Shown one piece after another: positions 415-14,165 of a stretch of DNA of 14,709 bases. A program made the translations under genes and the position numbers. Source of the stretch: a virus; the UHGV virus genome UHGV-0109417; one strand, written 5' to 3'. Under the pieces are notes generated by a model. That model ran no database searches, was not told the origin of the DNA, and saw only the letters and a program-made list of their open reading frames with translations. Within the stretch, counting starts at the first letter, position 1; each line of letters opens with the position of its first letter.

Positions 415-792
415 TTATTTCGAACAATCAGCATCCATCTCCAATCGGAGAACCAACACCATCAGCATACCCTCCACTACGCCCTCAGCTTTCTGAAGCA
501 TCCTGCCAACCCAACAATCAGATCGCCCATGCTTACGTGCAAGCGCCATAAAAGTCATGCCGCCGACATAATAGTCCACCAATAAATCATGCAAATCGCT
601 GTTGTTCTTTTTCAGACGGGCCATGCACCCGCAAATGATCATCGCGTCATCGTCACAACATTGTGGGCGAGATTTTACTTTTGAAGGAATTAATCCCTTA
701 AAACCGGCGGCAATGGACGACCAGGTCACATCTTCATGATTATTAGCCGCCCACGCTCCCCAACGCTCAAGAACCATCTGAATATCACGCAT
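415..792 (-). CDS. quuD: late-gene antiterminator Q (DLP12 QuuD type)
   Basis: [34 protein letters not shown]...[32 protein letters not shown] is near-identical to E. coli QuuD as I recall it. ATG at 792 with GGAG 7 nt upstream is preferred over the TTG at 807. Confidence 0.9.
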
Positions 793-877
793 CAACTTAC
801 TCCACAAAACTCAGACCAGAACGCCAATTACAAGCAAAAATCAACAAAACAGTATTAGTTGATTGTTATCTCTGACT

Positions 878-1827: not shown

Positions 1828-2282
1828 TACGCCTCCTGCTTGTCGCGGAGCAGCTGGAACTCGCAGCTCTGCGGAATAGTCAGGTGGCAGCCAATATTCA
1901 TCGCCCAGGCTTCAACCTTACACAGGAAGACATACATCTCTCCGGTATCAAGATTGGAGGTATGACGTAATGACTGAATGGTGGTGATTTCACCGGTTAC
2001 GACATCAACCAGTTCTTTGGTTTCATAACCGAGATAAGTGTGTTTGAGAGCATCTTTTACCCAAGCTGGAGTGGCGAACGTTTTACCCCTGCTGATGAGG
2101 TATTCACTGATTTCGCTGTACCACATGTGGCTGAGTGCATTCTGGGAAAGACTGCGTCTCTCGCGCCACGGTTTAAGCACCATGCGAAAGCATTTGCCGT
2201 CCTCCAGATAAGGCTGGATCTGCCGACCGATAGCGGTGAAGTTACCGCGATGCAATTTGATACCATCTTGTGGGAGGTTCAC
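1827..2282 (-). CDS. ybcN: NinB-family protein (YbcN)
   Basis: 151 aa. [20 protein letters not shown] matches the NinB motif (lambda RSLDQNRKLWACLGDVS). GTG start with GGAGGTGA upstream. Confidence 0.9.
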
Positions 2283-2380
2283 GCTTCACCTCCGCAGAGA
2301 TCAAACGCTGGATGCAAAATATCGCAGGTGCATTTCTGCATCTGTGAATGGAGAAGAGAGGTTGGATTGTATGTGCGCAT
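2279..2380 (-). CDS. ylcH: 33-aa ORF at the ylcH position
   Basis: [33 protein letters not shown]. The stop overlaps the ybcN GTG (GTGA). Assignment is positional only. Confidence 0.45.
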
Positions 2381-2488
2381 AAACGTCCCCGTTTAGCGCA
2401 GAAGTCACCGAAGTTGTTCAGGCTCCGATTACTTAATTATGGCAAGTTGATTATCGCAAATCAAAGGTTTTAATTGTGCTTTATTCTT

Positions 2489-2689
2489 TCAAGCGTTTCC
2501 TTCATACCAAAGCCTATAAAGTTTTTCTTCTTCGTTTGGGTTAATAGGCTCACCATGTTTTAATTTTTCAGTGTACAAAATTGTTGAACAAATCGCGGAA
2601 GTTAATCCAGTGATCGCCATCTGCCGCAGATCGGATTTTTGTGTCCCCCTCAACAGACGATCTCCCATCCATGTAATAATTGTATCCAT
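2489..2689 (-). CDS. hypothetical 66-aa protein (in the foreign cassette)
   Basis: ORF MDTIITWMGDRLLRG...YRLWYEGNA. Weak RBS, AT-rich, no motif recognised. Confidence 0.4.
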   Translation of the reverse strand: MDTIITWMGDRLLRGTQKSDLRQMAITGLTSAICSTILYTEKLKHGEPINPNEEEKLYRLWYEGNA

Positions 2690-3271
2690 GCTTCAGCCCT
2701 TCTTAGTAAATAGTGTGTAGGGCGACTGAAGGACCGAGTTTATGCTTTTTCGCATTGCTTTCAGTTAGTAGACCGGTATAGCACCGGAAACAATCCTACG
2801 GCAAATTGGTTGTCTGACCTCTCGGTTTTTCGTGCATTAACCGATACCCACTACAGTCTCGGCGAAAGCTGCACACCCCCAAGGTGTACTGGTAGCACTC
2901 GGCACAGCCTAGCGCGCCACTTTCTTCTCACTATCCAGTCTAATTTTATCCCCTAGTCAGACACTCAGATGTAGTGCTCAGCAGCGGCATGCGGGGGAAT
3001 ACAAAAACTCGGACAAAATTGGGCCCTCCTTTTTGAATCACTCGCGGGGATGTAGTTATTAATACATGGGAAAAGATCTGTTTTCAAATCCAACATTATA
3101 TGGTTTCAATACCACGGGGTGGCTATGTGTTTCTCATTATTATTTACAATCTACTGTAATCGCTCCGAACGCAAATGCGTCAATACTCGAATCAACTGAT
3201 CATCCTGCCACGACTGAAATCTCAAATAGGCCGTTTCTCAAGTAAGAGATTTTGAATGCATTATTGGCTAC

Positions 3272-3300
3272 TGAAATAAAAAACCCAGCGCAAACTGGGT
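3272..3300 (-). terminator. intrinsic terminator after the 164-aa gene
   Basis: Stem ACCCAG (3283-3288) / CTGGGT (3295-3300) with loop CGCAAA. On the minus strand it is followed by TTTTTTAT. Confidence 0.65.
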
Positions 3301-3318
3301 TCATATGAAATTTTTTTG

Positions 3319-3813
3319 TCATTTCCAATTGCAAGACTGTGAAATTTTTTCCACAACCTTATCAATCTCAGACAAGTCAAACTCAACTACTTGCATAGTT
3401 GATCCATAAGGTTCAAACCCAAAAATAGCTTTTTTATGCTTAGCCAAGGTCTTTATAAATTGTATTGGTTGTGGAGCAAATGCAGAATCACCGCCTTCCC
3501 CACCTCCCCAAACACTCTTGACCGGCTTTCCGCCATCTAACCGCACTGTAATTCTTGGGTTGTCCGAACCCATATAATCATTGAATGATAAATAGGCATC
3601 TGTTTTGTTATCACTACAACGCAACACCAGTGAAGTTGCACGATCAGTACCTGCTTTGTTATATGAATCTGGTGATAAATTAAGAGCCACAAAGTCAGTC
3701 TGGTCAGTCATTTTATTTATCTCAGACTTTGTTATCCACGGCCCTAACTTCTCTACACCAGCATTTGCTGTAAACGAGGCACTTATAACAAAGGCTAAAA
3801 TAAATTTTCTCAT
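3319..3813 (-). CDS. secreted/periplasmic hypothetical protein (moron)
   Basis: 164 aa. N-terminal signal peptide MRKFILAFVISASFTANA|GVEK. AAGGAG RBS. Low GC relative to its neighbours. Has its own terminator. Confidence 0.75.
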   Translation of the reverse strand: MRKFILAFVISASFTANAGVEKLGPWITKSEINKMTDQTDFVALNLSPDSYNKAGTDRATSLVLRCSDNKTDAYLSFNDYMGSDNPRITVRLDGGKPVKSVWGGGEGGDSAFAPQPIQFIKTLAKHKKAIFGFEPYGSTMQVVEFDLSEIDKVVEKISQSCNWK

Positions 3814-3959: not shown

Positions 3960-4133
3960 TTAAACAAACGTTCGCCAGACCTTACCATCAATGACCAGGA
4001 TTCCTGCCCGCGTCATTTTTGCCGCAGCCTTATTTATGCTGGTTAATGTCACACCTGTTGTCGCAGCAACGTCCGGCGCACAGAAGCTCTTGTGCGTCTC
4101 CAGATAATGAATAATTGCCTCTTTGCCCGTCAT
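3960..4133 (-). pseudogene. ren: ren, truncated (57 aa versus 96 aa in lambda)
   Basis: MTGKEAIIHYLETHKSFCAPDVAATTGVTLTSINKAAAKMTRAGILVIDGKVWRTFV* follows lambda Ren up to ..GKVWRT, then diverges and stops. The start overlaps the P stop (ATGA), as in lambda. Confidence 0.75.
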
Positions 4134-4831
4134 ACAGTTGCTCCTTTCAGTCCGAACTTCGCTTTGATTTCTGCGATCTTCGCCAGAGCCTGAGCCCGGT
4201 TAAGTGGTCTACCGCCCATGACAGGAAGTTGTTTTACTGGTTCAGGTATAGCCTCACCACGGTTAATTCGTGCGGTCATACAGGACAGTTCATCGGCAGC
4301 CTTGCGCCGTAATTCCGCGTCAGTCAACGCATTGGCCCGCATGTTCTGATACAGGTTGGTAACCAGCCAGTAGTGCGCGTTTGATTTCCACGGATAAGAC
4401 TCTGCATCCGGATACAGCCCGCGCTTCCGGCAATACTCGTAAACCATATCAACCAGCTCGCTGGCGTTTGGCAGCCCGGCGGTAACGGATGCTTCTTCCC
4501 GGCACCAGGCGACAAACTGCCCGGGTGATGGCAGGAATGGTCGATTCTGCCGACGGGCTACGCGCATTCCAGCGTTAACCTGTTCCATTGTGGTGATCCC
4601 GTTTTCCCGAAAAGCCAGCACCCACTGGCGGCGGATTTCGTTCAGTTCATTCTGGTCACGGTTAGCCAGGCTCGCCGGGAAAGTTGCCAGTAACTGGCTG
4701 AACACACCGTTGATGATCTGCGCTACCTGCTGTACCTGCGGCTTTTCGTCGTACTGTTCCGGCATGTTGTTGGCGATCCGACGCATCTGCTCACGGTCAA
4801 AGTTAACCATCTGTGCGGCGATGTTTTTCAT
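4130..4831 (-). CDS. P: replication protein P (DnaB loader)
   Basis: 233 aa, MKNIAAQMVNFDREQMRRIANNMPEQYDEKPQVQQ..., near-identical to lambda P. Confidence 0.95.
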   Translation of the reverse strand: MKNIAAQMVNFDREQMRRIANNMPEQYDEKPQVQQVAQIINGVFSQLLATFPASLANRDQNELNEIRRQWVLAFRENGITTMEQVNAGMRVARRQNRPFLPSPGQFVAWCREEASVTAGLPNASELVDMVYEYCRKRGLYPDAESYPWKSNAHYWLVTNLYQNMRANALTDAELRRKAADELSCMTARINRGEAIPEPVKQLPVMGGRPLNRAQALAKIAEIKAKFGLKGATV

Positions 4832-5757
4832 AAATCCACCCCGTAAATCCAGTCAGTGTTTGTCAGGTCGAGTTTTGGTTTGCTGGCTATCATGCCTGCC
4901 TGTTGCTTGTTACGGTTGATTTCGAGTTGGGTCCACTTGTCGCGGAGTTTGGCCGGACTTAGCACGTTACCGGACCAGAAGTTGTCCTGGCATGCCCAGC
5001 GGAAAAGCACGCACATGTCGCGGTGGTTACGTCCGTCACGTTCACGCATCAGGCGGATATCGTTAGCCCACCCTGCAAAATTCGGTTTTCTGGCTGATGG
5101 TGCGATGGTCTTCACCATGTCAAACATCCACTCTGCGGCGGTCAGGTCTTCTGCTGTCCCCCACTTGCTGCCGCTCTGAATTGCAGCATCTGGTTTCACC
5201 ACAGGAAGATCGTTTTCTGGTTGGTCAGAGGATTCGCCAGAATTCTCGGACGAAAAAGGTTTTATATTGTCTTTTGTTAGTTTGTCTTTTGTGTTTACCT
5301 GATTCGGGTAAACGCCTTTACCTGATTTGGGTAAACTTTTCTTACCTGATTCAGGTAAATTTACCTCTTTCAGGTAAACTTTATTTTCGTTACCTGATTT
5401 GGGTAATTTCACCCATTCGCTGACCGCTTTGTTAATCCCCACAGTTCTCCCGATTTGGGTAAATACCCCGCGCTTAACTAACGCGCTTTTAGCAGCAGAG
5501 CATTTGTGTGGGAGGATGCCGGTCAGGGCAGATAACTGATCATTGCTTACCCAGTCTGCCTTTTTGTTGAAACCGTATGTTTTGCGCATTACTGCCATGA
5601 AGACCAGCAGCTGATGCTGAGACAATCCAGCCAGCATGACAGCCTCCAGAAGTTCATTGGCGATGCGCGTATAGCCATCATCAAGATCTGCCACGCGCGG
5701 CTCCTTAGGTGCCACGTCAGGCACAGGGAAATTGATTACTTCGGCAGTGTTTGCCAT
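4828..5757 (-). CDS. O: replication initiator O (divergent N-terminal iteron-binding half, lambda-identical C-terminal half)
   Basis: 309 aa. From SSENSGESSDQPENDL to ...TDWIYGVDL it matches lambda O. The N-terminal half retains only VADLDDGY / RKTYG-type motifs. Confidence 0.95.
   Translation of the reverse strand: MANTAEVINFPVPDVAPKEPRVADLDDGYTRIANELLEAVMLAGLSQHQLLVFMAVMRKTYGFNKKADWVSNDQLSALTGILPHKCSAAKSALVKRGVFTQIGRTVGINKAVSEWVKLPKSGNENKVYLKEVNLPESGKKSLPKSGKGVYPNQVNTKDKLTKDNIKPFSSENSGESSDQPENDLPVVKPDAAIQSGSKWGTAEDLTAAEWMFDMVKTIAPSARKPNFAGWANDIRLMRERDGRNHRDMCVLFRWACQDNFWSGNVLSPAKLRDKWTQLEINRNKQQAGMIASKPKLDLTNTDWIYGVDL
5255..5407. repeat. replication origin inside O: five 19-bp iterons plus an AT-rich tract
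   Basis: Iterons are at 5294-5312, 5317-5335, 5341-5359, 5360-5378 and 5389-5407 (TTTACCTGATTYGGGTAAA type, each an internal dyad). The AT-rich tract 5255-5293 lies on the side expected from lambda ori. Confidence 0.85.
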
Positions 5758-5839: not shown

Positions 5840-6061
5840 TCATGCTTCAAAATCTCCCTTCACTCCATCCCTGCTAGAAATCAGGATGGCGAGCAGCAGC
5901 GACATGTTCGGCACCAGGTTCTCCCGCCACCGGCTTACGGTTGATTTGTTCACGCCAGCTACTTCGGCGATCCTGGTTGTCCCAAGATCTGCGATTTGCC
6001 GCTGCACCCAGCTCTCAATTCGTCGTGCCTCCGCTTTGTTGCGTGTCGTTAAGGTCTCCAT
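5840..6061 (-). CDS. cII: CII-like transcriptional activator (short, possibly truncated)
   Basis: RNKAEARRIESWVQRQIADLGTTRIAEVAGVNKSTVSRWRENLVPNMSLLLAIL parallels lambda CII (KRNEALRIESALLNKIAMLGTEKTAEAVGVDKSQISRWKRDWIPKFSMLLAVL). 73 aa versus 97 aa. Confidence 0.8.
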   Translation of the reverse strand: METLTTRNKAEARRIESWVQRQIADLGTTRIAEVAGVNKSTVSRWRENLVPNMSLLLAILISSRDGVKGDFEA

Positions 6062-6101: not shown

Positions 6102-6347
6102 TCAGGCGGCATGTGAATCTTGTTTAATTCGGTCAGGGTTAGCTGCTTGACGGAGCCATTCAGCCGTAAACTGCCCATTTGATGCGTCAGCCAAAAGCTG
6201 CGAATAGTTGGTTTTCTCTGTGTACTCAGTACGAGGCAGCGCCGCGTTCTTCACCCACTTGTGAATAGCAACGTTCGATAGGCCACACAGGCGAGCAGCA
6301 GCGGTTTGACCGCCTACAGCTTCGATTGCAAATTGCATTGGGTTCAT
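6102..6347 (-). CDS. cro: Cro-like HTH regulator (YdaS/DUF1019 type)
   Basis: 81 aa. AVGGQTAAARLCGLSNVAIHKWVK resembles Rac YdaS (VVGGQSAMARLLGVSPPSVNQWIK). It is the first gene downstream of the predicted PR. Confidence 0.75.
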   Translation of the reverse strand: MNPMQFAIEAVGGQTAAARLCGLSNVAIHKWVKNAALPRTEYTEKTNYSQLLADASNGQFTAEWLRQAANPDRIKQDSHAA

Positions 6348-6358
6348 AGTGTTTTCCG

Positions 6359-6439
6359 TTAACTATATTAACTACGAGTTAAGGTTATATCTTAACTGAC
6401 AGTTATGTCAACTCTAATTGATAATTAACGAATGGTTAA
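6359..6439. promoter_or_regulatory. OR region: dyad operators with divergent PR and a candidate PRM
   Basis: Operators: TTAACTACGAGTTAA 6368-6382 (perfect dyad), TTAACTGACAGTTAT 6392-6406 and TTAACGAATGGTTAA 6425-6439 (spans the cI ATG). PR on the minus strand: -35 TTGACA (6411-6406), 16-nt spacer, -10 TATAAC (6389-6384). Candidate PRM: -35 CTGACA 6396-6401, -10 GATAAT 6420-6425. That would start transcription at about the cI AUG (leaderless); this part is low confidence. Confidence 0.7.
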
Positions 6440-7208
6440 AAAAGACGATTTAAAAGAAGAATTCTCGAAAAGACTTCGCGCTGCATTGCTTGATGCTGGC
6501 GTTGGTGGTCGTGGGCAGGCTGGTAGGATCAGAGAGGCTATGAAGTCCCAAGGAATTACTGTATCTGAGCCCGGGATCTGGAAATGGCTTAACGCATCAG
6601 CGATACCAGACCAAACCAATATCCTTGCCCTTAGCCGCTGGCTTGGGGTACGGCCTGAGTGGCTTGAATACGGAAGGAATGATCCCGAACCTGAACTGCG
6701 TAGGGAGTCATCTATCCCTCCAGAATCTGAATGGGGAACTGTTGACGCCTGGGATAAAAACACACCGCTTCCTGCTGACGAGGTTGAAGTGCCGTTTCTT
6801 AAGGATATTGAATTTGCGTGTGGCGATGGACGCGTACACAGCGAAGATCACAATGGTTTTAAGCTCAGGTTCTCAAAGGCAACCCTCCGCCGCGTTGGAG
6901 CTAACACAGATGGGTCTGGCATCCTGTGTTTCCCTGCTACTGGCGACAGCATGGAACCTGTGATACCGGATGGTACGACTGTAGCCGTCGATACGAACAA
7001 CAAACGCATAGTTGATGGGAAACTGTATGCCATTGGTCAGACAGATGGCGGGAATGGTCAACTCAAGCGCATTAAACAGCTGTATCGTAAGCCAGGTGGG
7101 AAGCTGATCATCCGCAGCTACAACAATGAGGCCTACCCTGATGAAGAAGCTGACATTGATGATGTTGAGATAATCGGCCGCCTCTTCTGGTACTCGGTAT
7201 TGCTGTAG
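6432..7208 (+). CDS. cI: CI-type repressor (N-terminal HTH, C-terminal S24/LexA-like autocleavage domain)
   Basis: 258 aa. N-terminal HTH (FSKRLRAALLDAG...WLGVRPEWLEYG). C-terminal FPATGDSMEP...GKLYAIG...LKRIKQLY, typical of the S24 Ser-Lys fold. No SD upstream. Confidence 0.9.
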   Translation: MVKKDDLKEEFSKRLRAALLDAGVGGRGQAGRIREAMKSQGITVSEPGIWKWLNASAIPDQTNILALSRWLGVRPEWLEYGRNDPEPELRRESSIPPESEWGTVDAWDKNTPLPADEVEVPFLKDIEFACGDGRVHSEDHNGFKLRFSKATLRRVGANTDGSGILCFPATGDSMEPVIPDGTTVAVDTNNKRIVDGKLYAIGQTDGGNGQLKRIKQLYRKPGGKLIIRSYNNEAYPDEEADIDDVEIIGRLFWYSVLL

Positions 7209-7254
7209 CGGTGGCCTGATGAGACGTTTTGGTGAAAGCATATAAGGACTGGTG

Positions 7255-8121
7255 ATGGAAAACACTGGCTTACACGATGTTAATTTTTCACTTAGATATG
7301 ACGGTTTGGATGCTGAAAAGCATGAGATTGAACTTTCTTCGCTCGGTGAATCGCTAAAGGGATTTTCGAAGATATTAGCTACAGCTGGAACCTTCGCATT
7401 AACCCAAAAGTACTCGCGAAGCACCTCAACTCAAGAGGTTAAAATTTACGCTACCGAAGCTAGGGCCAATTGTTTTTCTCTTGATACTATCATGAATTTT
7501 ATCAGTCAGTCTCAATTGTTCTCAGGGTCTGCGGGGGCTATACTTGGCGCATTAGTGCCTTATATCTTCGCTAAAAACTCGCAGAAGAAAGAGGAAATGA
7601 AATACCTAAAAGAAGCACTTGAGAAGGCAATTGAGGCCCTCGGAAATAAAGATAAAGATACCATCTCAGGTCTAATCTCAGTGATTGACAAGATGGCTAG
7701 TGAGTTACGCCCATCAGTTAGACAGGCAGTTTCCCCCATCGGTACCACCTGTAATAAGATAAGCGTCACACCGGGGAATGGTTTCAAGCCTGCTGTAATT
7801 GATGAGCAAGATAAAGCAGTAATAGACCAGTTGGACGACGACGAAGTTCTTGGCTTAAGGGAGTATCGAATCTTCCTTACTGAATTCGACGCTCACCGAA
7901 TGACCGCTAAAGTCATTATAGAAGGTGATGATTCAGATAAGCGCATCTCAGCACAAATAAGCGATCCATCTGCTTCAAAGGCAGACAACCCGTATCTCAT
8001 TTCACTTAGTCGTTTTCTGTCAACGGGTCTAAGTCATGAGTCAGCGGTAAAAGTAACTGCCAAAGCAGCAGTTAGAAAAGGGGCTATTAGTAAACTTTTC
8101 ATAGTTGATATTGAGCTTTAA
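7255..8121 (+). CDS. hypothetical 288-aa protein in the rexAB position
   Basis: ATG 7255 with AAGGA 7 nt upstream, 47 nt after the cI stop, with no terminator between. One hydrophobic segment, [18 protein letters not shown] (aa ~88-105). No family recognised. Confidence 0.8.
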
Positions 8122-8123
8122 CA

Positions 8124-8149
8124 ACCGGCCACCGCGCCGGGTTTTTTGT
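8124..8149 (+). terminator. intrinsic terminator shared by the convergent 288-aa and 72-aa genes
   Basis: Stem CCGGC (8125-8129) / GCCGG (8136-8140), loop CACCGC, then GTTTTTTG. Weaker on the minus strand (followed by TTGTT). Confidence 0.6.
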
Positions 8150-8151
8150 GC

Positions 8152-8370
8152 CTACTTCACAGCTTTACTACCCTTCCTGACTATCTCAGCTGCATCCCGT
8201 AGCATCCCCTTATGGATCACGTTTCCTACGGCTTTGCGCTTCCCTTCCAGAAATCCCACAATGTTGTCCTTATTGATTTCAATTCCGTTATAAACCAGCT
8301 CGAACACTACGCACCCAACCTCTCCAGCCATGAAGGCCATTCGTTCATCTGCACGTTCATCTCGTTCCAT
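8152..8370 (-). CDS. hypothetical 72-aa protein adjacent to OL
   Basis: MERDERADERMAFMAGEVGCVVFELVYNGIEINKDNIVGFLEGKRKAVGNVIHKGMLRDAAEIVRKGSKAVK. ATG 8370 is preceded by AGGAGGT. The tracked start at 8412 has no RBS. Confidence 0.7.
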   Translation of the reverse strand: MERDERADERMAFMAGEVGCVVFELVYNGIEINKDNIVGFLEGKRKAVGNVIHKGMLRDAAEIVRKGSKAVK

Positions 8371-8432
8371 AGCTACCTCCTGATGTTTTTTGCAGCATAG
8401 CACGTACTGCACAAATCCATAACAGAACTAAA

Positions 8433-8517
8433 TTAACCAATAAATCATAACCTTAATAACCAATGGCAAAATAATTAACCAACGGTTATTGACTGAAAAT
8501 AACCATTAGTTAATAAT
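8433..8517 (+). promoter_or_regulatory. OL operators and PL promoter
   Basis: -35 TTGACT 8489-8494, 17-nt spacer, -10 AATAAT 8512-8517. Dyads TTAACCAACGGTTAT 8475-8489 and ATAACCATTAGTTAA 8499-8513 have the same consensus and the same 24-bp centre spacing as the OR pair. Extra half-sites (TTAACC/ATAACC) occur at 8433, 8447 and 8456. Confidence 0.65.
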
Positions 8518-8563
8518 CAGCTCATCGAAACGAAACATCGACAGCTGAGCGAAGTTAGCCAGC

Positions 8564-8602
8564 GGCGGACAGCAAGTCGCCTGCTTCTTTAACAAATCAG
8601 AC
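8564..8602 (+). promoter_or_regulatory. boxA-like antitermination element preceded by a small hairpin (nutL-equivalent, rrn-like order)
   Basis: TGCTTCTTTAACAA (8582-8595) versus the boxA consensus TGCTCTTTAACAA (one extra T). It continues ATCAGAC, like the rrn leader (TTTATCAGAC). Hairpin GGCGG (8564-8568) / TCGCC (8577-8581). Confidence 0.45.
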
Positions 8603-11945: not shown

Positions 11946-11963
11946 TTTTTGAGGGGATTAACG

Positions 11964-12809
11964 ATGGCAAACGAATTAACAATCACAGCGACGTCGCTTC
12001 AGGAGATAGGCGTCGACGTCTCCACCTGGAGCGCGCTGAAGAACAGCATCTACCCTGGCGCCAAAGACGAATCGGTAATGATGGCGCTTGACTACTGCCG
12101 AGCCCGCCAGCTGGATCCGTTGCTCAAACCTGTCCACCTCGTTCCGATGTACGTCAAAGACTCGAAAACAGGTAAAGGCGACTGGCGAGACGTGGTCATG
12201 CCGGGCATCGGGCTTTACCGCATTCAGGCAGACCGTTCCGGCGATTATGCCGGGGCTCGGGAGCCTGAGTTCGGGCCCGACGTAACTCAGACGCTAACTG
12301 GCGTCGAGGTGACCTTCCCTCAGTGGTGCAAATACACCGTCTACAAGCGCATGCCCAGCGGCGAGATCGTCGAGTTCAGCGCCAAAGAATACTGGATTGA
12401 AAACTACGCCACCGGCGGCCGCGACACCACGGCGCCGAATGCAATGTGGAAAAAACGCCCATACGGCCAACTGGCGAAATGCGCAGAAGCCCAGGCATTA
12501 CGTAAGGCATGGCCTGAGATTGGACAGCAGCCTACCGCTGAAGAAATGGAAGGCAAATCGCTGGACGTTGATATTCGTGACGTCACCCCGCGCAGCACCA
12601 CAGAAGCGCTTCCACCAGCAGCAAGCGAAGAAACGCTCCAGGCGATAACCGATCTCTTAACGACCCTGGATAAAGACTGGGAGAAAGACTTCCTCCCTGT
12701 GTGCAGCGACATCTTCAAGCGGCCAATTCTTGAGGCGTCAGACCTCACTGAAGAAGAGGCACAGAAAGGGTTCAACTTCCTTCAGAAAAAAGCTAAGGCG
12801 GCAGCATGA
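11964..12809 (+). CDS. bet: single-strand annealing protein (Bet/RecT family) with a lambda-Bet-like C-terminal tail
   Basis: Core motif [24 protein letters not shown]. The C-terminal [32 protein letters not shown]...[12 protein letters not shown] parallels lambda Bet DETMQEINTLLIALDKTWDDDLLPLCSQIFRR...LGFLKQKAAE. ATG 11964 with a GAGGGG RBS. Confidence 0.9.
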
Positions 12810-13486
12810 CACCCGAAATTATCCTGTCCAGGACCGGTATTGACGTAACTACTATCCAACAGGGCGATGAGGCGTGGCACCGGCTGCGCCTCGGCGTTAT
12901 CACAGCCTCCGAAGTGCATAACGTCATAGCCAAGCCAAGATCGGGGAAGAAGTGGACAGACATGAAAATGTCCTACTTTCACACCTTGCTCGCCGAGGTA
13001 TGCACAGGCGTGGCGCCAGAGGTTAACGCCAAGGCGCTGGCCTGGGGCAAGCAGTACGAGGAAGACGCCCGCACCCTCTTCGAGTTCACCACGGATGTGA
13101 AAGTCACGGAGTCTCCGATCCTGTTCCGTGACGAGAGCATGCGCACCGCATGCTCCCCTGACGGCCTGTGCAGTAACGGGTTCGGTCTTGAGCTTAAATG
13201 CCCGTTCACCTCCCGCGACTTCATGAAATTCCGCCTTGGCGGTTTCGAAGCCATCAAGTCTGCGTATATGGCCCAGGTGCAGTACAGCATGTGGGTGACC
13301 GGGAAAGAAGCCTGGTTCTTTGCCAACTACGACCCACGAATGAAGCGAGAAGGCATTCACCATGTCGTTGTTGAACGGGATCCGCAGTACATGACCGATT
13401 TCAACGAAATGGTGCCGGAGTTCATCGAGAAGATGGACGAGGCGCTGGCGGAGATCGGATTCACGTTCGGGGAGCAGTGGAAATGA
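12806..13486 (+). CDS. exo: lambda-type 5'-3' exonuclease (Exo/YqaJ)
   Basis: 226 aa, [14 protein letters not shown]...[24 protein letters not shown]...[39 protein letters not shown]..., near-identical to lambda Exo. Confidence 0.95.
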
Positions 13487-13641
13487 AACATTACCGCGAC
13501 GCCATAACCGTAGGAAAAGTGAAGTGCATGTACTCCGTCCTTCATCGTGGCTGGCTAATGCCATCTGGTGAAGTGGTAAGAAACCCGTTAAAGGCTCAGC
13601 GGATGGCTGAAGAGCTGGCCACGAAAAGAGGTGCGCAATGA
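13483..13641 (+). CDS. hypothetical 52-aa protein (below the ORF-track cutoff)
   Basis: [56 protein letters not shown] overlaps with both exo and the methyltransferase. Confidence 0.5.
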
Positions 13642-14165
13642 CTGATTATGGCGGATCGAAAACTCCAAAAAATGAACGTGACTACTGGCAAACACCGATT
13701 GAAATTTTCAACGCGCTCGACCGCGAGTTTGGCTTCTGGCTGGATGCTGCAGCCTCTGAGAGTAATGCGCTATGCGCTCACTATCTCACTGAGCTGGATG
13801 ACTCGCTGAACAGCGAATGGACGTCATGCGGCGCGATCTGGTGCAACCCACCCTATTCCGATATCGGCCCGTGGGTGGAAAAGGCTGCTGAGCAATCCCG
13901 GGCGCAGTCTCAGGCCGTAGTGATGCTGTTACCTGCTGACATCTCTACTGGCTGGTTTATTTCAGCCATGCAATCAGCTGATGAACTCAGACTCATAACC
14001 GGCGGCCGTGTTCAGTTTGTTCCGGCATCCGTTACAGGAAAGCGCCAGAGCAACCCTAAAGGCTCGCTCCTGTTTATCTGGCGCCCGTACATCACCCCGC
14101 GACACATCATCACGATCGTATCGCTGGCTGAGTTAAAGCGGATCGGGAATCTGGAGGCAGCATGA
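13638..14165 (+). CDS. phage DNA N6-adenine methyltransferase (Dam-like, no partner endonuclease in the window)
   Basis: 175 aa. YWQTPIEIF...FWLDAAAS...IWCNPPYS (NPPY catalytic motif), typical of the phage N-6-adenine methyltransferase family. Confidence 0.9.
   Translation: MTDYGGSKTPKNERDYWQTPIEIFNALDREFGFWLDAAASESNALCAHYLTELDDSLNSEWTSCGAIWCNPPYSDIGPWVEKAAEQSRAQSQAVVMLLPADISTGWFISAMQSADELRLITGGRVQFVPASVTGKRQSNPKGSLLFIWRPYITPRHIITIVSLAELKRIGNLEAA

Follow-up and report, generated by a model that had tools for sequence, protein, structure and literature searches.

phi80 gene 40A, an apparent cargo gene behind prophage repressors with a candidate role in anti-phage exclusion

The stretch of DNA analysed here (the window; 14,709 nucleotides of the UHGV virus genome UHGV-0109417) covers the early genes of a lambdoid prophage, in the orientation opposite to the usual lambda map. 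Between a block of minus-strand genes and the early leftward region lies an operon of two genes on the plus strand (Table 1). Its first gene encodes a cI-type repressor, assigned by its self-cleaving domain and by a match to the transcriptional repressor family phrog_4. The second encodes a product of 31 kDa and is called 40A below, after its counterpart in phage phi80.

Table 1. Features of the window; positions are counted from its first nucleotide.
Feature	Position	Strand	Basis or remark
Q	415-807	-	
RusA, YbcO, NinB-like gene		-	
P	4130-4831	-	
O	4828-5757	-	
cII	5840-6061	-	
cro-like gene	6102-6347	-	Divergent from cI
PRM-like promoter, CTGACA-18-GATAAT	6396..6425	+	Consensus scan, 10/12 matches; just 5' of the cI start
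cI-type repressor, HTH and S24 self-cleaving domain	6432..7208	+	Peptidase_S24, E 1e-15; phrog_4, E 7e-43
Gene 40A, 288 aa	7255..8121	+	Pfam DUF7946 and DUF7947, phrog_5147, DNA identity to phi80
Codons of the hydrophobic helix, aa 88-105	7516..7569	+	Conserved, uncharged
Codons of the C-terminal OB-fold-like beta barrel, aa 197-288	7843..8118	+	AlphaFold2 model, fold matches
Putative intrinsic terminator of the cI operon	8125..8149	+	5 GC pairs, 6-nt loop, T-run; conservation
PL-like promoter, TTGACT-17-AATAAT	8489..8517	+	Scan; inside an inverted repeat; far edge of the slot
RecT	11949-12809		Early leftward gene, downstream of 40A
Exonuclease	12806-13486		Early leftward region
Dam methylase	13638-14165		Early leftward region

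The open reading frame of 40A is listed from a GTG (7252..8121, plus strand, 289 aa), and the ATG at 7255 gives the 288-aa product; the GTG reads TTG in phi80, and the ATG is kept in both. A spacer of 46 nt (7209..7254, plus strand) separates the cI stop from this ATG. It carries a ribosome-binding site, AAGGA at 7244-7248, 6 nt 5' of the ATG, shows no terminator-like site on scanning, and holds no stable structure, folding no better than shuffled sequences (z +0.84). Downstream, a stem of the form CCGGC-6 nt-GCCGG at 8125-8140 runs into GTTTTTTGTG, with a folding energy of -9.7 kcal/mol. The stem energy alone is not better than that of shuffled sequence (z -0.51), and the element is called a terminator because of its stem-plus-T-run pattern and because other prophages keep it behind cargo of other kinds. 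The GC content of the ORF is 42.1%, while cI stands at 50.2% and the window as a whole at 49.9%. The initial annotation had described an ORF behind cI with its own ribosome-binding site and no intervening terminator, closed by a terminator and lower in GC than the repressor gene, and all of these points held. The PRM-like promoter occupies the position equivalent to the annotated pRM of phi80 and is presumed to be the promoter of a cI-40A transcript in the lysogen. Since 40A lies between the repressor stop codon and the operon terminator, it is most likely made in the lysogen on this PRM-cI transcript.

At the far edge of the slot, the PL-like promoter overlaps an inverted repeat with a 17-bp stem (8474-8514, to 8517 with the promoter), which probably contains the OL operators of this immunity type. 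The adjoining leader or nutL-like sequence at 8521-8601 is common to phi80 (93%) and AW1.7 (100%) and corresponds to the region annotated as nutL in phi80. An 86-aa ORF (8152-8412, minus strand; phrog_3975 match, E 2e-31; 72 aa, 8152-8370, in the RefSeq version) runs convergent to the cI-40A operon. Because phi80/DH10B, CX05 and HK225 have relatives of it in the corresponding place although their cargo differs, we count this ORF as phage backbone and not as cargo. The hairpin at 8125-8140 is common to both transcription units and may end transcription in both directions. Elsewhere in the window, between P and the nin genes, the minus strand encodes a 164-aa protein (3319-3813) with a signal-peptide-like N-terminus and a borderline Pfam match to VasI (type VI secretion; E 5e-6, 26.7 bits against a cut-off of 26.5). 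This is possibly a second cargo gene.

Gene 40A is a real and strongly conserved gene. The initial annotation had presented it as an unrecognised gene with no nameable motif, a label that is true of function only, as its sequence was already known. Window positions 7210-8226 are 99.1% identical to phi80, where the gene between cI and pL is annotated as '40A', and the gene itself is 99-100% identical at the DNA level to the copies in phi80 and in E. coli DH10B. Pfam places DUF7946 at residues 11-191 (E 4e-62; 210 bits against a cut-off of 27) and DUF7947 at residues 201-286 (E 1e-20; 73.8 bits against a cut-off of 27), both above the gathering cut-offs and in the order that defines the family, and phrog_5147 is matched over its full length (E 2e-156). 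Against homologs of 79-90% identity, dN/dS is 0.035-0.04. A profile search of 1.84 billion representative proteins returned 634 clusters (50% identity) at E<=1e-3, ranging from alpha- to gamma-proteobacteria; nearly all of the best 150 of these 634 clusters are 270-300 aa long and have the same two domains. The gene is present at 99% identity or more in 62 of 5,426 complete E. coli genomes. Carriers include DH5alpha, DH10B, TOP10, NEB 5-alpha, 10-beta, JM83 and XL10-Gold, all by way of the phi80dlacZdeltaM15 remnant, and the copy is identical in DH5alpha, DH10B and TOP10. DH10B has retained intact copies of both the phi80 repressor and 40A.

The family matches no characterised defence system. 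In a PADLOC search, no validated defence family was matched by 40A, and the only match was to the candidate PDC-S42 (23.1 bits, E 1.1e-5), weak and partial in that it covers profile positions 4-130 of 302. A search of the accessible literature for DUF7946, 40A, PDC-S42 and WP_000432054 returned nothing, and found neither an experiment on gene 40A nor a function for it. When the N-terminal 140 residues were used in a profile search for other C-terminal partners, only fragments of the DUF7946/DUF7947 family were retrieved. Proteins with odd match patterns in the representative search were plain DUF7946 plus DUF7947, and no informative domain fusion was seen among the relatives of 40A that were viewed.

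In the 1988 phi80 entry X13065 the gene appears as two ORFs, 40A (209 aa) and 40B (95 aa), presumably owing to a sequencing frameshift. The 2012 phi80 entry JX871397 carries the product label 'acetate kinase superfamily domain', which current Pfam and NCBIfam models do not reproduce. In IMG/VR, five loci (L095, L096, L097, L105 and L107) hold truncated or interrupted copies, with ORFs of ∼155-235 aa against ∼287 aa. These hint at occasional inactivation of the gene, with assembly artefacts as the alternative.

The place of 40A behind a repressor is kept across a wide range of phages. We assembled 108 homologous loci from IMG/VR, GTDB genomes, metagenomes and annotated records (14-sequence alignment), 106 of which were informative. 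A CI/S24 repressor lies directly upstream on the same strand in 86 of the 106, and these 86 repressors fall into 16 clusters (50% identity). The larger clusters of 40A homologs (85% identity) each pair with several repressor clusters. The same layout was seen in E. coli, Klebsiella-like phages, Morganella, Mannheimia and Vitreoscilla, with identities as low as 47%; the homologs of Mannheimia and of the beta-proteobacterium Vitreoscilla keep the position at 47-48%. With 16 repressor clusters in mixed pairings, the position has therefore been kept through many independent recombination events. The rexAB- or bstA-like layout in the cI-to-PL slot proposed in the initial annotation is thus borne out by 16 repressor types, and by prophages in which the slot holds other cargo or none.

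These related prophages show how the slot varies. The window's own cI differs from that of phi80, and identity to phi80 starts at 7210, 2 bases past the last base of the cI stop, and tails off ∼50 nt past the terminator. E. coli CX05 has a cI with 93% identity to that of the window, but its slot (2740-3734 of locus L015) holds a 194-aa hypothetical protein with no Pfam match, followed by a YafO-family toxin; the two look like a toxin-antitoxin or defence pair. HK225 carries HK97 gp48/49-like genes. The slot of AW1.7, a strain with a different cI, has no gene in it, and cI leads directly into a terminator and PL. The terminator and its 3' flank recur behind the different cargo of CX05 (89%) and HK225 (93%); on this pattern, we count the putative terminator at 8125-8149 as part of the backbone of the phage, not of the cargo. 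The cI-N region has been described as a mosaic hotspot that holds bstA, and rexAB in lambda (Owen et al. 2021, PMC8585504). Judged by these comparisons, 40A is a cargo ('moron') gene exchanged between immunity types, and is best described as a new variant of the repressor-linked class of prophage cargo.

The junction on the repressor side has features of its own. In phi80 (∼4895-5000 of locus L001), the interval between the cI stop and 40A contains ∼90 more bases than 7209-7235 of the window. The extra bases repeat the junction motif GTGGCCTGA(A/T)GAGACGTTT(G/T)GGTGA, which is present as a single copy in the window, and the repeats may be a scar of the recombination that moved cargo into the slot. 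A hammerhead ribozyme at the junction motif (CUGAUGAG after the cI stop) was considered and rejected: Rfam returned nothing at its gathering thresholds or at E<=1, and the spacer folds like its shuffles.

Distant homologs (28-43% identity) sit in other mobile-element settings. A homolog in Nitrosovibrio lies between a P2-type gpA, its immediate upstream neighbour, and an entire Kiwa pair, KwaA-KwaB, which comes directly next; the gpA-gpQ interval has been described as a defence hotspot of P2 (Rousset et al.). Another follows a TnsA-like gene, others lie beside IS transposases, and one stands alone, its surroundings free of mobile-element genes out to 6 kb. The gene that comes next after the homolog of the Vitreoscilla prophage encodes a SIR2 protein matching PDC-S25, a PADLOC candidate (E 2e-142). 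On a Steroidobacteraceae contig (L023), a full-length RmrA (2231-3313, minus strand; E 1e-145), the HTH-peptidase of antitoxin type from RosmerTA, is convergent with a DUF7946/DUF7947 homolog at a distance of 157 nt. These neighbours (Kiwa, SIR2/PDC-S25 and RmrA) are suggestive of a link to defence, as individual loci with no background rate for comparison.

An AlphaFold2 model built from 31 diverse homologs (mean pLDDT 78.6, pTM 0.62) divides the product into four parts. At the N-terminus, a strand (aa 10-16) and a long helix (27-50) hold the invariant residues R14, D16, G17, D19, A20 and H23 of the motif R-x-D-G-x-D-A-x-x-H. A further invariant motif, N72-C73-F74, follows ∼50 residues later behind a poorly modelled loop. 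A hydrophobic helix (92-108), with a lysine-rich stretch behind it, is the second part; the third is a helical hairpin, and the model shows three more helices at 112-158. The C-terminal domain is modelled with confidence as a five-stranded barrel with a helix between strands 3 and 4; it matches solved OB domains in fold, and its conserved residues are K219, R230, D237, P238, Y247 and K270. The K/E-rich helix, acidic linker and C-terminal domain of ∼90 aa described in the initial annotation are all seen in this model. No enzyme fold was found for the product. A sequence search of the PDB with the family profile gave only insignificant coiled-coil-like matches (E>=0.014), and Foldseek against BFVD retrieved uncharacterised phage proteins only. 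A catalytic Cys-His-Asp triad (C73, H23 and D16 or D19) was entertained as speculation and set aside, with pLDDT values of 48-68 in that part of the model and no fold match in support. Conservation of the two end domains is high across alpha- to gamma-proteobacteria. It suggests that they bind ligands that are themselves conserved, for example nucleic acid or a component of the host, and not phage proteins that evolve fast.

The hydrophobic segment at residues 88-105, already marked in the initial annotation, is real by the Kyte-Doolittle measure, with a 19-residue maximum of 1.67, just above the usual threshold of 1.6. It is free of charge in 30 of 31 homologs, though its sequence varies. K+R amounts to 0.26 in the 15 residues before it and to 4.39 in the 15 after it, a 17-fold asymmetry over the 31 homologs. 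This is a classic positive-inside signature, by which the helical and OB parts would be cytoplasmic. On the other hand, Gly, Ser and Pro are frequent in the segment, and its Hessa dG is +3.45 kcal/mol (median ∼+3 over the 31 homologs), which makes constitutive membrane insertion doubtful. An N-out topology would need the export of ∼88 residues without a signal peptide. A conditionally inserting helix and a buried helix are equally possible, and an association with the membrane, as an anchor or by conditional insertion, is a possible reading of the segment.

Several known systems resemble 40A in part. Like lambda rexA-rexB, it is placed in the cI-to-PL slot on the repressor strand, with the terminator before OL/PL and not after cI; it shares with rexAB a cargo nature, dispensable for lytic growth, and possibly a membrane-linked action. 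Where rexAB comprises two genes, 40A is a single ORF, and no RexA or RexB family was found in it by Pfam or PADLOC at E<=1. RexB is a multi-pass membrane protein, whereas the 40A product has one marginal hydrophobic helix. The RexAB system excludes T4 rII mutants by depolarising the membrane. BstA of the Salmonella prophage BTP1 (PMC8585504) is likewise a single gene directly 3' of a prophage repressor with its own Rho-independent terminator, and its family too keeps synteny across many Gram-negative prophages, as 40A does at 86 of 106 loci. The two proteins differ in predicted architecture and have no sequence similarity: PADLOC finds no BstA, and Pfam finds DUF7946 and DUF7947 only. The bstA locus also contains aba, a cognate DNA element for self-immunity. 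PDC-S42, phrog_3243, phrog_33593 and NCBIfam LAPAL_fam are of similar length (∼275-300 aa), and their N-terminal 130-190 residues weakly match the DUF7946 half (E 1e-5 to 6e-8). The likeness is confined to that half and far under the cut-offs (24.8 bits against 60 for LAPAL_fam), and the C-terminal domains differ; no tested function for any of the four was found in the literature.

Two further comparisons concern the way the protein could work. Kiwa couples a membrane protein, KwaA, to a cytoplasmic nucleic-acid-binding protein, KwaB. The analogy to 40A, which would join a membrane part to a cytoplasmic nucleic-acid-binding part, is a possible one only, alongside the one homolog that lies directly upstream of KwaA-KwaB; the two are not homologous, and 40A is a single polypeptide. 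P22 SieA, HK97 gp15 and T4 Imm resemble the 40A product in being small and phage- or prophage-encoded; they are lysogen-expressed and have a hydrophobic anchor, both of which are putative for 40A. No sequence relationship to it was detected, and 40A carries in addition ∼180 predicted cytoplasmic residues that include the OB fold.

Genes behind prophage repressors, among them rexAB, bstA and sieB, have repeatedly proved to have immunity functions. Gene 40A probably serves in anti-phage exclusion or abortive infection. We favour an anti-phage cargo because of the position of the gene, its movement from one immunity type to another, the other cargo that its slot can hold, its occurrence in P2 and transposon hotspots, and its defence neighbours. 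In the mechanism we propose, the OB domain on the cytoplasmic side would bind an infection cue, either a nucleic acid or a conserved protein, and the membrane-proximal N-terminal half would act at the inner membrane. The outcome would be either a block at or near genome entry or the collapse of the infected cell. As a whole, the account of a real, conserved cargo gene identical with phi80 40A, made in the lysogen and most likely shielding it from other phages, stands in our estimate evenly balanced between right and wrong. The initial annotation's candidate exclusion or abortive-infection factor has thus been upheld as a cargo gene; the defence function is deduced from context, with no validated family matched and with the plating behaviour described below.

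What is reported of phi80 lysogens bears directly on this proposal. They show a tenfold interference with P1 and exclusion of T4 (Rotman et al. 2010), and that report does not name the gene behind them; 40A is an obvious candidate. A published study used DH10B as a plaque host for lambda, T4, T5, T7, N4 and others. DH10B carries cI-40A intact and plates these phages, so a broad or strong block of them at native expression is unlikely. Gene 40A alone probably does not explain the T4 exclusion of phi80 lysogens, and any protection it gives would be narrow or weak, given that T4, T5, T7 and lambda plate on this host. Partial effects on these phages would agree with the plating results, and so would effects on P1 or other phages beyond the DH10B panel. 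The conservation of the end domains from alpha- to gamma-proteobacteria is, moreover, unusual for a sensor in an arms race with phage proteins.

A simpler form of protection would be superinfection exclusion, with 40A as a bitopic inner-membrane protein, N-out and C-in, that blocks genome entry without killing the cell, in the manner of P22 SieA, HK97 gp15 and T4 Imm. The conserved uncharged segment of 18-22 residues, with its K+R asymmetry and Kyte-Doolittle maximum, agrees with such a protein, as do the lysogen-expressed position and the label of one JGI homolog as a membrane-anchored YhcB-like protein. We nonetheless consider it unlikely, as the Hessa dG is positive at ∼+3 kcal/mol, an N-terminal domain of 88 residues would have to be moved without a signal peptide, a simple block needs no large conserved cytoplasmic OB domain, and lambda, T4, T5 and T7 plate on DH10B. 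The gene might instead tune lysogeny in the way of 434 Hex, for instance through an effect on RecA-dependent cleavage of the repressor or on induction, with the OB domain perhaps acting through ssDNA. The near-obligate link to S24 self-cleaving repressors in lambdoid phages speaks for this, and OB folds commonly bind ssDNA. There is also precedent in Hex, described as PRM-transcribed and acting on repressor cleavage (PMC3564112), and phi80 is described as unusually easy to induce (Rotman et al. 2010). Yet some homologs have no S24 repressor (those beside P2 gpA and Kiwa, a TnsA-like gene or IS transposases, and lone chromosomal genes), so the function of 40A would be independent of cI; the same or a partly shared cI also occurs with other cargo, and one different cI with an empty slot. 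We regard a lysogeny-tuning role as quite improbable.

Nor do we give much weight to a lysogenic-conversion factor that would serve host physiology, such as the envelope or stress tolerance, and have nothing to do with phages. A low-GC cargo gene expressed in the lysogen, with a possible membrane association and no similarity to validated defence proteins, could be of this kind. Such a gene would not be expected to recur in phage and transposon hotspots beside Kiwa, SIR2/PDC-S25 and RmrA, and the product has no domain for transport, adhesion or metabolism; the probability of this reading is low. An enzyme of the acetate-kinase superfamily is suggested by the product name in JX871397 and by nothing else. 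No acetate-kinase or ASKHA domain was found by Pfam at E<=1, by NCBIfam, or by sequence and fold searches of the PDB, all of which contradict that identity, and the predicted fold is one of helices and an OB barrel; we rate this reading as having a negligible chance of being correct.

Within the preferred reading of 40A as anti-phage cargo, a bolder proposal can be made, which we put forward tentatively and with more doubt than confidence. DUF7946/DUF7947 may be a new single-gene immunity family in which a helical hairpin links a cytoplasmic OB sensor to an N-terminal effector that inserts conditionally into the membrane. It would travel behind repressors and in P2 and transposon hotspots, might explain part of the interference of phi80 with P1 and T-even phages, and would be silently active in DH5alpha, DH10B and TOP10. 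If true, this proposal would make 40A the single-polypeptide equivalent of systems that pair a sensor with a membrane component, such as RexAB or Kiwa, in a family that is widespread (634 clusters) and unrelated to any characterised system. It would also give the P1 and T4 phenotypes of phi80 a concrete candidate gene, with T4 made the less likely target by the DH10B data. Finally, the most-used E. coli cloning strains carry an identical, apparently intact 40A behind an intact repressor, and any activity of this gene would be a hidden variable for phage work in DH5alpha or DH10B.
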